A DNA stretch of 10,255 nucleotides from Promethearchaeati archaeon (GCA_013166775.1 JABLTJ010000053.1:1-10255); one strand, 5' to 3'. Positions 4,026 to 7,757 are shown, counted from the stretch's first letter. Numbers and translations are program-made. Notes: generated from the letters alone by a model not told the origin.

Positions 4026-4249
4026 TCATTCCTTAATGAACTCGTAATATTTCCGGATGAAATCATCCTACTGGGATAATTGACCCATTAATTTTTTTTG
4101 TTGTGGGTCAACTTCTCCGCAAGTCTATACATGCCTTATTCGTCAACTATCTTCCAAGTACTCTCAAGAAGTGTTTTTGCTTTTTGGAAATCAAGCTCTA
4201 CCACAGATTTCTGAGCTTTTAACCAATGGGTCATTATTTGCAGGTTGTT
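4026..4249 (-). pseudogene. 3' remnant of a TPR gene paralogous to 493..2325
   Basis: Translates as NNLQIMTHWLKAQKSVVELDFQKAKTLLESTWKIVDE*GMYRLAEKLT/QQKKLMGQLSQ*DDFIRKYYEFIKE*. About 53 of 74 aa (hand count) are identical to the C-terminus encoded by 493..717. Internal stops at 4136-4138 and 4068-4070; 1-nt deletion near 4104. Confidence 0.92.
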
Positions 4250-4722
4250 TACTCAGATTCCTTAATGGGTTCTTTTTCAATAGTCTCAGACTCAAGTTCC
4301 AGTTCTGGATCTGGTTCAAGCACATATTCAGTTACTGATTTCTTTCCTGTATCCTTAAAATCAATGGCATCTCCACCACAATCATAGCAAAACTTGGCAT
4401 TATCAGGCAAAGGTATTTTGCAACTATCACACATTTTTGCTCCCCTAACAGGGACACCACAGTTTGCACAAAACATAGCCTTGTCTTGGATTAGTTTCTC
4501 ACATTCGAAACACTTTCGTTTGTCAGCAAAGACTGTACCTTTCATCTTTTCAAACTGATCTATGCATTTTTCCTCGATTTTACCTTCAAGCTCAGCCCAT
4601 TGGGTTTTATATCTTCGGTTCAAAGAAAACCTTCCTAAAAGCGAAGCGAGAATACCTGAGAGAATACCTCCAGCTAAACCAATACCTGCCATGATTCCTA
4701 TTGTTACCCAATTTATTACCAT
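4249..4722 (-). CDS. Membrane-anchored double zinc ribbon (DZR) protein, 157 aa
   Basis: Gly-rich N-terminal TM helix; four CxxC pairs (CFEC, FCANCG, CDSC, FCYDCG); acidic tail; SD GGAGT at 4737-4733. Confidence 0.88.
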   Translation of the reverse strand: MVINWVTIGIMAGIGLAGGILSGILASLLGRFSLNRRYKTQWAELEGKIEEKCIDQFEKMKGTVFADKRKCFECEKLIQDKAMFCANCGVPVRGAKMCDSCKIPLPDNAKFCYDCGGDAIDFKDTGKKSVTEYVLEPDPELELESETIEKEPIKESE

Positions 4723-4789
4723 TTTTATATTTACTCCATATTAGATTGATTTTATTATACTTTTTTTTACTTTTAACCTAAATTATACT

Positions 4790-7276
4790 TTAATTCTCTT
4801 TTTGCGATTCAACTTCCTTAAAATCATCAGCGTCTTTTTTAATGACAGTACCACAGATATAGCAATAAGGACCAATAGAGATTGTTTCGCATTTTGGACA
4901 ACAAGCATCTTTTTTCATTTCATCCAAGAGATCCTTAACTAAATCTTTGATTTTACCTTCAGTCTCCTTTTCAACTTCATCCTTAATATCTGGTGATTTG
5001 TCAGGTGTCTCGTCTGGAATTGGTTGCTCTGTTGTAGGTTTATCTGGAGTTAGTTCTGGAGGTAATTGTCTTTCTGAAGGAATTTCACTATCTGGAGGAG
5101 GAATAGATTCATTAGAAGGAGGTGGTTGACTTAAAGACTCCTCGGGAGTTGAAGGTTCAGAAATTTTAGACCTTCGAATTCTCGGTCTGAGACCACCACC
5201 GGATTGAACAATCTGAGCTCCAATAATTATCCCACTAATAGTAATGGAAATAACTATCGCTGAAACATAAGCAATAATATTTTCTGCTATAATTAAATCA
5301 GATATTTGAAATGGATGATTGAGAGGATCAGTAGGATCACGTCCTTTATTAATTTCCTCTAAATCAGTAAAACCATCTCCATCTGTGTCAGGATTAGTTG
5401 GATCAGTTATATATCCATCAAGCCCTTCTTGGATTTCTTCATCATCATTTATTCCATCGCTATCGCTGTCTGCAAGCCAAGGATTCGTTCCATTAAGGTA
5501 TTCATCGTAATTAGTTAAGGTATCTAGATCAGGATCACCTGAAGCATCATTAACAAGAGGATTTAGATTATTAACAACTTCCCAACCATCGGGCATAAGA
5601 TCATTATCAGTATCAAAATCATTAGGATCTGTATTTTCAAGATATTCATTATAGTTAGTGAGATTGTCAAAGTCAGGATCACTTGCTGAATCATTCAATC
5701 TTGGATTAAGAGAGTTAGTTACTTCCCAAGCATCAGGCATCAAATCATCATCACTATCACTTTTATAGAAATATGTATGGTGAATCATTAACTCATCATA
5801 ATTGGATAGTCCATCTAAATCCAAATCTTCAATTGAATCATTGAATAGAGGATTGAGTCCTACTTGTACTTCTTGTCCATCGAGTATTAAATCATCATCA
5901 GAGTCAGCATCGGTACTATTTGTACCATAAAATTCCTCAGTTAAATCATCCAAATAATCACAATCACTATCTAATTGTCCCGTATGAAAAATAGAACCTC
6001 CAAAACAATGCCATTGCTCTGGACCAGAAGAAACTACACCCGTAAAACCATAGCAATATAGTGTTTGATTTTGCATTCCTATCATTTCTAAAATACCATC
6101 ACTATCTAAATCAACTAAAGCTTGAGTAGAACGAAAAACCATAGTTGATGTAAAATTCCATTCTTCTCCACCTGTGTGATTAAGACAGTATAGCTTGTAA
6201 TCATCAGAGCCTATCAGTACTTCTAATGTGCCATCACCATCTATATCAGCAATACTAGGTGAAGAATAAACAAAATAACCTGTTGTGTAGCTCCATTCTA
6301 CACTGCCAGTGTGATCAAAGCAGTAAAGATTGTAATCTAAAGATCCAACTACTACTTCTAAAGTACCATCAGCATCCAGATCTGCGATTACAGGTGAAGA
6401 TTTGATTTCGAGAGATGTTGTATAACTCCACTCTAAACCTCCAGTATGGCTAATGCAATAGAAAACATTATCATATGATCCTATTAAAACTTCTAAAGTA
6501 CCATCGTCATCTAAATCAGCTACTGCAGGTGTAGAAACAATGCTATCACCTGTTGTATAACTCCACTCTATTACCCCTAAGTGATTCAAACAATATAGTT
6601 TATTATCAGATGATCCAAACAACACTTCTAAGGTACCGTCTGCATCCAAATCAGCAATACAAGGAGATGAATCTATTCTATCACCCGCTATGAAACTCCA
6701 TTCCATACCGCCAGAGTTATTTAAACAGTAAAGCTTGTAATCCCAGGATCCAAACAACACTTCTAAACTATCATCACCATCTAAATCAGCTACTGCTGGA
6801 GAAGTACGAATAGTGCTACCTGCCTGATAGCTCCATTTCAAACCACCTGAATGATTAAGACAATACATTCTTTTATCATCTGATCCAATTAAAACCTCAA
6901 GAGTTCCATCACCATCAAGATCAGCTGCTGCAGGAGAAGTAGAATATATACAATCATATGTCCTAAAAAACCATTCCCTAATGCCATAATTATTCAAACA
7001 ATAAATTTTATGATCAACTGAACCGATTAAAACCTCTAATGAACCATCTCCATCAAGATCAGCTACAAAAGGTGTATTTCCATAAAACATTTCTGTATAG
7101 CTCCATTTTTCATAGACTCCCATTGCCTCAGGGAGAAATATATAATCATTATTATCAGATATTTTTGCTTCTACTTCAATTGGTTTAATAGAAGCCACTC
7201 CTATTTCTAGTATTATTATCAGCAAATAACAACTTATGATGATTTTTTTTATTTTTGGTGAATTTTCTTGTCTCAG
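4790..7276 (-). CDS. Single-pass surface protein: signal peptide, 8 FG-GAP-like propeller blades, TSP3-like Ca-binding repeats, TM helix, Pro/Glu/Ser/Thr-rich linker, zinc ribbon
   Basis: Eight SP-x-x-ADLDGDG-x-LEV repeats; D-x-D-x-D-G/L repeats; TM IIAYVSAIVISITISGIIIGAQIV; C-terminal CPKC...YCYICG. The ORF track starts at 7225, but the frame is open to 7285, and a CTG at 7276 with SD GAGGGAG restores a basic signal-peptide n-region (start uncertain). Confidence 0.88.
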   Translation of the reverse strand: MRQENSPKIKKIIISCYLLIIILEIGVASIKPIEVEAKISDNNDYIFLPEAMGVYEKWSYTEMFYGNTPFVADLDGDGSLEVLIGSVDHKIYCLNNYGIREWFFRTYDCIYSTSPAAADLDGDGTLEVLIGSDDKRMYCLNHSGGLKWSYQAGSTIRTSPAVADLDGDDSLEVLFGSWDYKLYCLNNSGGMEWSFIAGDRIDSSPCIADLDADGTLEVLFGSSDNKLYCLNHLGVIEWSYTTGDSIVSTPAVADLDDDGTLEVLIGSYDNVFYCISHTGGLEWSYTTSLEIKSSPVIADLDADGTLEVVVGSLDYNLYCFDHTGSVEWSYTTGYFVYSSPSIADIDGDGTLEVLIGSDDYKLYCLNHTGGEEWNFTSTMVFRSTQALVDLDSDGILEMIGMQNQTLYCYGFTGVVSSGPEQWHCFGGSIFHTGQLDSDCDYLDDLTEEFYGTNSTDADSDDDLILDGQEVQVGLNPLFNDSIEDLDLDGLSNYDELMIHHTYFYKSDSDDDLMPDAWEVTNSLNPRLNDSASDPDFDNLTNYNEYLENTDPNDFDTDNDLMPDGWEVVNNLNPLVNDASGDPDLDTLTNYDEYLNGTNPWLADSDSDGINDDEEIQEGLDGYITDPTNPDTDGDGFTDLEEINKGRDPTDPLNHPFQISDLIIAENIIAYVSAIVISITISGIIIGAQIVQSGGGLRPRIRRSKISEPSTPEESLSQPPPSNESIPPPDSEIPSERQLPPELTPDKPTTEQPIPDETPDKSPDIKDEVEKETEGKIKDLVKDLLDEMKKDACCPKCETISIGPYCYICGTVIKKDADDFKEVESQKEN
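5320..5975 (-). repeat. About nine thrombospondin type-3-like acidic repeats (intragenic)
   Basis: DSDCDYLDDLTE, DSDDDLILDGQE, DLDLDGLSNYDE, DSDDDLMPDAWE, DPDFDNLTNYNE, DTDNDLMPDGWE, DPDLDTLTNYDE, DSDSDGINDDEE, DTDGDGFTDLEE. Confidence 0.8.
6045..7110 (-). repeat. Eight ~135-bp (45-aa) tandem FG-GAP-like blade repeats (intragenic)
   Basis: Periodic protein motif, also visible in DNA (e.g. gatccaaacaacacttctaa near 6612 and 6747; catctaaatcagctactgc near 6508 and 6778). Confidence 0.9.
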
Positions 7277-7328
7277 TTTTCTCCCTCAATATTCTATATT
7301 ACGTCTTTTTTTTCGATTTTTCTTTCTC

Positions 7329-7757
7329 TTAACTTATTTGTACCTTTTTCATTGAATCTTCAACATGCATTACTTCCATTTCAGAAGATTTCTTCTCTAC
7401 AGCCTCAGCTCGGCAGATATAGCAAAACTTGGCAGAATCAGGCAAAGAAATTCCACATTCTTTGCATTTCATTGCTCCTGTTACAGGTATTCCACAAAAA
7501 GCACAATATGCAGCATTTTTTGGTAAGAGGTTTTCGCAAGCAAAGCAATCTTTATTTCTTTTTAAGAGCTTATTTCTCAGTTTTGCTTTGTTTTTTGCTA
7601 AGCATTCATCTATTAGGATTTTCGTTTTTTCTTTCGCTTCCTCTGAGGTTTTCTTTATTACTGCTTTACTTATCAATGAAACCGCTATGCTCGATGCTGT
7701 TCCTCCAGCTAATCCAGCTCCGGTTGTAGCTACTAGCACGATCCAATCTATGACCAA
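7329..7757 (-). CDS. Membrane-anchored double zinc ribbon (DZR) protein, 142 aa, paralog of 4249..4722
   Basis: MVIDW...GAGLAGG TM helix; CFAC, YCAFCG, CKECG, FCYIC; shares MVI-x-W, GLAGG, PV-x-GA, LPD-x-AKFCY with the other DZR protein; TTG start with a GAGGGA SD. Confidence 0.88.
   Translation of the reverse strand: MVIDWIVLVATTGAGLAGGTASSIAVSLISKAVIKKTSEEAKEKTKILIDECLAKNKAKLRNKLLKRNKDCFACENLLPKNAAYCAFCGIPVTGAMKCKECGISLPDSAKFCYICRAEAVEKKSSEMEVMHVEDSMKKVQIS

Follow-up and report, generated by a model that had tools for sequence, protein, structure and literature searches.

Three co-oriented genes and their products

We analyzed a 10,255-bp stretch of DNA from a Promethearchaeati archaeon (GCA_013166775.1 JABLTJ010000053.1:1-10255), which is the whole of contig C115 in a metagenome-assembled genome (MAG) of 3.85 Mb (genome G000; 115 contigs, 33% GC, and 88.7% complete) and is referred to below as the window. 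The nearest named relatives of the window proteins were found in MAGs of 'Candidatus Heimdallarchaeaceae', and the locus DNA is present in marine-sediment metagenomes from two studies. At its center lie three minus-strand genes, A (7329-7757; 142 aa), B (4790-7225; 811 aa), and C (4249-4722; 157 aa), in which a large surface protein (B) is flanked by two small membrane proteins. An earlier note on this DNA had described three co-oriented genes with short gaps and no T-tract between them, and this was borne out: the reading frames are separated by spacers of 103 nucleotides (nt) (A-B; 7226-7328) and 67 nt (B-C; 4723-4789), and neither spacer contains a run of five or more T residues on the coding strand. 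T5/T7 runs occur in the region upstream of A (7758-8030), at 7993-7997, 7917-7921, and 7862-7868, in the interval that separates A from an SBP_bac_5 gene. The same region holds a TATAAA at 7849, about 92 nt 5′ of the A start, and GAGGGATG, which precedes the TTG start codon of A. The Shine-Dalgarno (SD) motifs reported in the note need correction: the SD-like GAGGGAG of B sits 56 nt from the TTG, and C has a GGAG 14 to 17 nt 5′ of its ATG.

Proteins A and C are paralogues, sharing 36% identity over 125 aa without gaps (E = 1e-29), and they matched only each other, no other relative of either being found in the 3.85-Mb genome. Both exceeded the cutoff of the Pfam family DZR (PF12773), with 28.9 bits for A and 37.1 bits for C against 27.3 bits. 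Each starts with M-V-I-[DN]-W and continues, from about residue 4, into a Gly/Ala/Ser-rich hydrophobic transmembrane (TM) helix, basic residues, a long helix, and two C-x2-C-x10-C-x2-C ribbons. The double zinc ribbon comprises residues 71-115 of A (nt 7413-7547), where it is followed by a short tail, and nt 4375-4512 of C, where an acidic tail follows. Among ten members of the A/C family, G15, G18, G19, and all eight Cys residues were invariant. The positive-inside rule predicts a single-pass, N-out/C-in topology for A and places the ribbons of both proteins in the cytoplasm, with only about three residues outside. Thus, the description of the flanking genes as paralogues consisting of a TM helix, a helix, and a double zinc ribbon with almost no ectodomain was correct. 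The net charges of the cytoplasmic parts are +8 for A, −5 for C (full-length homologues of C are more acidic), and −11 for B. Family scans revealed no enzyme-like domain in A or C; a sequence search of the PDB gave nothing significant, and the matches in ESM Atlas were all generic DZR clusters that stayed under 0.8. None of the three proteins matched a specific NCBIfam family or a PADLOC anti-phage defence model.

Protein B is composed of a head, a stalk, and a tail. The head (residues 36-395; nt 6041-7120) is an eight-blade beta-propeller with a calcium-type DxDxDG loop in each 45-residue blade. FG-GAP-type families matched it at E values from 1e-32 to 1e-44, and B exceeded the cutoffs of the FG-GAP-like/ACSF4-type families PF13517, PF13570, and PF25292 (110.2, 153.2, and 142 bits against 26.9, 133, and 26.8, respectively). 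The AlphaFold2 (AF2) model of the head had a predicted local distance difference test score (pLDDT) above 90 across residues 36-395, and its best Foldseek match was the designed 8-blade propeller Cake8 (TM-score 0.96; root mean square deviation 1.7 Å), other matches being YxaL, BamB, and Bap1. The stalk (residues 419-635; nt 5321-5971) is an acidic, TSP3-like segment of about 215 residues with a net charge of −60 and nine DxDxD loops within residues 419-634, and it was modelled at a pLDDT of about 90. It scored 20.5 bits against Pfam TSP3_bac (PF18884; cutoff 25), and the homologous stalks of proteins from genome G079 and of the metagenomic protein P0060 scored 66 and 56 bits, respectively. 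The tail (residues 636-811; nt 4790-5320) contains a TM helix (641-674) with the motif SGIIIG, a basic stop-transfer sequence (RPRIRRSK), a disordered Pro-rich linker (675-747), an amphipathic helix (748-774), and a CPKC-x9-CYIC ribbon, CPKCETISIGPYCYICG; no relative of this tail was found elsewhere in the 3.85-Mb genome. Family matches, AF2, and Foldseek therefore upheld the proposed architecture of B, namely, an eight-blade propeller, an acidic TSP3-like stalk, one TM helix, and a zinc ribbon.

Surface proteins with FG-GAP propellers make up a greatly expanded family: this genome yielded 25 matches, and relatives yielded as many as 45. The paralogue closest to the B head (G000:C89:257-1789; 56% identity) has a plain TM anchor and lacks the ribbon tail.

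Distribution of the three genes and of the tail

The survey covered 399 Asgard species genomes and employed one profile built from the ten A/C family members and a separate one for the B tail. Full-length A/C proteins were present in 2 genomes, G000 and G079, the latter belonging to another family of the same class, while in all others the A/C profile matched the ribbon only. The B tail was detected in 3 of the 399 genomes, namely, the same two and, as a fragment, G060. In both A/C-bearing genomes, the two paralogues adjoin the tail-bearing protein, so that the linkage between TM-DZR genes and a surface protein, which the earlier note had proposed as a check, holds in two of two cases. The spread is patchy: 1 of 25 genomes of the window's genus and 1 of 12 genomes of genus g15 carry the genes, and none of 60 relatives, including 24 congeneric genomes, yielded a full-length A/C homologue, giving ribbon-level matches only.

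The G079 locus lies on the minus strand of contig C200. Its first gene encodes a propeller blade, the TSP3 stalk, a TM helix, a helix, and the ribbon CPKCEATKIGPICYVCG (CPKC..CYVC). After a gap of 31 nt follows a gene for a C-like TM-DZR protein of 191 aa whose acidic tail is long, and after a further 3 nt one for a 111-aa TM-DZR protein resembling A. The order is thus B-C-A, as opposed to A-B-C in the window, and the linkage therefore persists, with operon-like spacing, despite the different order. In a tree of the ten A/C proteins, the position of the G079 pair was compatible with either a shared or a parallel duplication; two distinct copies were kept regardless. On the same contig, a ubiquitin gene was seen at 2465-2698 (+) (L054), with a second copy at 8495-8728 (L076) on contig C2 beside LarB/LarE-like genes. 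The two copies share 100% aa and 90% nt identity and would be either paralogues or the trace of a second strain in the bin.

In G060, an orphan reading frame (L040, G060:C61, 9799-10290 [+]) encodes the TM helix, Pro-rich linker, helix, and ribbon at 51% identity to the B tail, and the SGxxxG face of the TM helix is kept. It is probably a remnant, since it has neither an ectodomain nor a canonical start, and no A/C genes were found nearby.

Searches of a collection of 5.8 billion metagenome proteins identified four homologues of C and three of A, which are 67 to 75% identical and retain all Cys residues. The tail profile, run on 1.84 billion representatives, matched ten proteins. Their heads include SBP_bac_5 domains (P0135 and P0060; the same head is found on P0010/P0147) and right-handed beta-helix/NosD-like domains (P0136, P0137, P0141, and P0143), and every head sits on a TSP3 stalk. 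Three metagenome assemblies contain A/C family members together with a tail protein: an 11,650-bp JGI contig (A homologue P0007, C homologue P0002, and beta-helix protein P0136), a 72,434-bp Logan contig (P0008, P0005, and SBP protein P0147), and a 7,535-bp Logan contig (A homologue P0131 and SBP protein P0010; C homologue not recorded), the shared contig being deduced from identical recorded sizes and the adjacency likewise deduced rather than seen. What B has in common with G079, G060, P0010/P0147, and P0136 is the tail. The genes are rare, they co-occur, and they adjoin one another irrespective of ectodomain and gene order. Since the ectodomain was swapped while the tail, A, and C were kept, the conserved unit, as judged from these sequences, is the stalk-TM-ribbon tail together with the two TM-DZR proteins, and the head appears exchangeable.

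Other searches gave no additional loci. The beta-helix tail protein P0143 had no match in the 399 genomes, and a search of metagenome and genome collections for related loci returned only unrelated DZR matches in bacteria and one metagenome contig. Proteins of 127 to 145 aa from family f3 were rejected as A/C orthologues, as they are soluble triple-ribbon, RING-like proteins.

State of the window copy and its genomic background

Several features indicated that the window copy is eroded. Immediately downstream of C, a decayed 3′ end of a tetratricopeptide repeat (TPR) gene (4032-4252, minus; codons 536-609) carries two stops and one frameshift; it stems from a gene paralogous to the TPR gene at 493-2325, and its two pieces share 76% and 67% aa identity with 493-717. 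This remnant abuts the stop codon of C exactly, and the tail of C is about 35 to 40 residues shorter than in the four 67-75% identical homologues. The shortened C and the position of its stop against the remnant suggest that the two genes were joined here by a deletion or by (illegitimate) recombination. In two studies, Logan contigs matched window positions 3500-8500 without difference, and one of them bridges the junction at 4249.

The start of B is also unusual. The sequence was read directly and compared with the N-terminus of the paralogue on contig C89, and this revealed that the n- and h-regions of a canonical signal peptide (KIKKIIISCYLL...) are encoded in frame within the A-B spacer, where no ATG, GTG, or TTG is available. 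The first such codon of B is the TTG at 7225; a protein begun there would lack the n-region and half the h-region of what is otherwise a good signal peptide (KIKKIIISCYLLIIIL...) and be left with a poor one. Only a CTG at 7276 (4 nt after GAGGGAG) or an ATA at 7252 could serve as a start for the complete signal peptide. No variant was seen at 7226-7288 in contigs from three runs.

On the other flank, the SBP_bac_5 gene (8031-9734, minus) encodes a protein with its own C-terminal TM helix and 39% identity to the P0010 head; the gene belongs to the context of the trio rather than to its core. Its 5′ end is probably broken, because about 80 N-terminal residues are missing relative to P0010 and the upstream sequence (9735-10000, minus) contains an in-frame stop and, in another frame, a segment resembling a signal peptide. 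Long uninterrupted frames and conserved residues lead us to argue that the trio genes were functional at least until recently.

Elsewhere in the window, a 202-aa basic coiled-coil protein with no family match (2428-3036, minus) precedes the TPR gene, and several TPR paralogues in the genome likewise have a gene of 130 to 200 aa directly upstream. A general association in G000 of TPR paralogues with zinc-ribbon membrane genes was examined as a candidate and found not to be systematic (about 2 to 3 of 10).

Zinc ribbons at membranes are frequent in this genome. Among its 64 DZR-type matches, the 40 best include 27 on open reading frames (ORFs) with hydrophobic segments, and about 79 membrane ORFs combine a TM segment with CxxC...CxxC; large proteins with a ribbon behind the last TM helix number only 2. 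Since such ribbons are common, a general claim that a membrane zinc-ribbon protein lies beside a surface protein would be weak. Within the genus, the ribbon closest to those of A and C outside their own family is the C-terminal DZR of an SPFH/Band-7 protein of about 330 aa (G000:C97:43588-44571; L073 3589-4572, minus), which is conserved across the genus, and its occurrence there fits a membrane-proximal docking role for the DZR domain.

A candidate membrane module and its relation to known systems

We consider the chances about even that the cluster encodes a three-component membrane module, rare and lineage-restricted, which in Heimdall-class Asgard archaea combines one display/anchor chain with two TM-DZR partners. 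Such a module would probably be an anchor-and-adaptor device rather than an integrin-like receptor. Its first component would be a variable ectodomain (the eight-blade calcium-binding propeller here, and SBP_bac_5 or a right-handed beta-helix elsewhere) held off the membrane by the calcium-binding TSP3-like stalk and fixed by the conserved TM helix, which would lead into the cytoplasmic linker, amphipathic helix, and CxxC-x9-CxxC ribbon. The second and third would be the small paralogous single-pass proteins, one basic with a short tail (A-type) and one with a long acidic tail (C-type), whose Gly-rich TM helix would continue directly into the cytoplasmic helix and the double zinc ribbon. The three TM helices may pack via their small-residue faces, and the juxtamembrane helices and ribbons may form a cytoplasmic hub by which the surface chain is anchored, oligomerized, or coupled to a partner in the cytoplasm. 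The TM helix-cytoplasmic helix-ribbon plan is common to all three proteins, the cytoplasmic part of A is basic and those of B and C are acidic, and the Gly and Cys residues of the A/C family are invariant; we infer that a hetero-oligomer, which would anchor or couple whatever head is displayed, is the most economical reading. A physical complex of A, B, and C is plausible, and the topology, zinc binding, and functions assigned to the three proteins are predictions from their sequences.

The earlier note had gone further in proposing a heteromeric adhesion/sensing receptor with two dedicated membrane partners. For the dedicated partners, the comparison across genomes lent support, the A/C family and the tail both being extremely rare and yet linked, whereas integrin-like adhesion or signalling through an FG-GAP head is not what is kept: the head is replaced by SBP_bac_5 or a beta-helix, it has eight blades, and nothing indicates signalling.

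A number of observations weigh against the three-component module. The AF2 model of C was poor (pLDDT 57). Only two loci were fully inspected, and on one of them, the 4.8-kb G079 contig, B is cut at the contig end. Adjacency on the three metagenome contigs rests only on their identical recorded sizes, and on the 72-kb Logan contig co-residence is not adjacency. The window copy looks eroded, with no canonical signal-peptide start for B and a shortened C, and the module was not found in the 24 congeneric genomes and is therefore dispensable. Moreover, membrane proteins of this archaeon commonly have zinc-ribbon tails, and docking of the ribbons may thus be to a general factor and not to each other.

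Among the alternatives, the one that survives best, though we regard it as unlikely, is a functional link in which no stable complex forms and A and C act as accessory factors (membrane-tethered regulators, insertion or sorting helpers, or quality control) that transiently recognize the tail, by analogy with sorting enzymes that recognize a C-terminal tag. This would agree with the conserved element being a C-terminal, tag-like module common to unrelated heads and with the linkage of the genes in two orders. However, each genome has one tail-bearing protein, as opposed to the many substrates of tag/sortase systems, neither A nor C has an enzyme-like domain, and two conserved paralogues with a matching TM-helix-ribbon plan look like structural subunits.

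Quite improbable, in our estimate, is that the three genes are neighbours by descent only, travelling in a small variable or mobile island with no joint work while the window copy decays. The patchy distribution, the decay on both flanks and at the B start, and the orphan tail fragment in G060 are what such an island would leave behind. Nevertheless, linkage persists although gene order differs between two lineages, the ectodomain was exchanged while the tail, A, and C were kept, and the 67-75% identity of A and C to their homologues with every Cys retained implies purifying selection; in addition, no mobile-element or defence genes turned up in the family scans.

The least probable of the alternatives, and a very unlikely one, is coupling to ubiquitin or to the endosomal sorting complex required for transport (ESCRT), in which A, C, and/or B would use their cytoplasmic ribbons to bind ubiquitin or parts of these systems and so mark the surface protein for ubiquitin-dependent sorting or turnover. 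It was proposed because a ubiquitin gene adjoins the module in G079, encoding 77 aa (PF00240; E = 1e-13; GG end) and lying convergent to the A-like gene at a distance of 84 nt; the location of the closest other DZR of the genus on an SPFH/Band-7 protein and the zinc ribbons carried by Asgard ESCRT-linked proteins (PMC11188069) point in the same direction. The ubiquitin gene is a single instance, though, with none in the window; contamination of the G079 bin is 7%, and its two copies may therefore stem from two strains; and the ribbons are generic DZR ribbons that match no solved ubiquitin-binding finger. They share the Cys spacing of the NZF/RanBP2 fingers, but the signature residues (W-x-C-x2-C-x3-N-x6-C-x2-C / T-F) were not seen.

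A bolder version of the three-component module, which we think quite improbable, is a modular receptor-adaptor system with exchangeable heads on a calcium-stalk/TM tail and a zinc-ribbon adaptor pair that would link them to cytoplasmic machinery, possibly ubiquitin/ESCRT or an SPFH scaffold. If true, it would be a prokaryotic counterpart of the adaptor-coupled, ubiquitin-sorted surface receptors of eukaryotes. Zinc-ribbon-tailed surface proteins are common in archaea. Here, a specific tail travels with two small TM-double-zinc-ribbon proteins, whatever its outer domain, which makes these two concrete candidates for what such a tail docks to; if the proposal is right, the DZR domain, which is very widespread, would gain its first partner. 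Rarity limits the importance of the module: full-length A/C occurs in 2 of the 399 Asgard genomes, and 1.84 billion proteins gave ten tail matches.

The literature searched contained no description of the trio layout, in line with the earlier note, which knew of no such system, and the trio is probably a rare, undescribed module. Integrin alpha chains and bacterial FG-GAP proteins (PMC3192720; VCBS supercluster, PMC8023676) resemble B in their calcium-binding blades, type I single pass, and short cytoplasmic tail. An integrin-type propeller was ruled out, however, by the eight 45-residue blades of B compared with seven in integrins, and B lacks the thigh/calf domains and the GFFKR motif. An integrin alpha/beta arrangement was likewise ruled out, since the leg is TSP3-like and the flanking genes encode about three external residues and no vWA domain; there is no vWA-domain beta subunit, the partners have no ectodomain, and the propeller is replaceable. 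The blade number and the missing leg domains and beta chain thus show that the trio is not an integrin-type system.

The same eight-blade fold as in B is found in Vibrio cholerae Bap1/RbmC (6MLT), which are matrix adhesins, Bacillus YxaL (7DXN), and BamB (3Q7M), with Foldseek E values from 1e-17 to 1e-21; these proteins are only 15 to 23% identical to B and lack the TSP3 stalk, the TM and ribbon tail, and the TM-DZR partner genes. Myxococcus CglD and MtsD (NCBIfam NF033765 and NF047639) likewise place a calcium-binding TSP3 stalk on a surface adhesion protein. Unlike B, they are bacterial lipoproteins that have neither a ribbon tail nor small partners, and B scored far below the cutoffs of both families. 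Sorting tags of the PGF-CTERM/archaeosortase, PEP-CTERM/exosortase, and LPXTG/sortase types were ruled out, as the B tail runs for about 140 cytoplasmic residues and includes a ribbon; a sorting-tag system was further ruled out by the single tail-bearing protein in the genome and by A and C being single-pass proteins that lack an enzyme domain.

A loose resemblance in layout exists to the VARTIG locus of Thermococcales (PMC8416519), an archaeal locus of patchy distribution that rearranges and in which small membrane proteins come after a large variable surface protein. Its families are unrelated (Ig domains and a DNNxxxGG tag), zinc ribbons are absent, and many variable downstream genes take the place of the fixed pair of paralogues. 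Generic DZR proteins (PF12773), including SPFH/Band-7-DZR, have the same submembrane double C-x2-C-x10-C-x2-C ribbon as A and C, from which the A/C family is set apart by its own M-x-[IF]-[DN]-W N-terminus, G-x-x-G-G TM helix, and helix.

In vertebrates, the ligand-binding chains of immunoreceptors are served by small TM adaptors such as DAP12, FcR-gamma, and CD3-zeta, and in bacteria the small membrane protein MgrB acts on the sensor PhoQ. Although the trio shares no homology with these systems, has no charged pair in its TM helices and no link to an immunoreceptor tyrosine-based activation motif or a kinase, and would involve a putative interaction, its layout is like theirs, with swappable ectodomain chains accompanied by small single-pass partners that would each carry a cytoplasmic interaction module.

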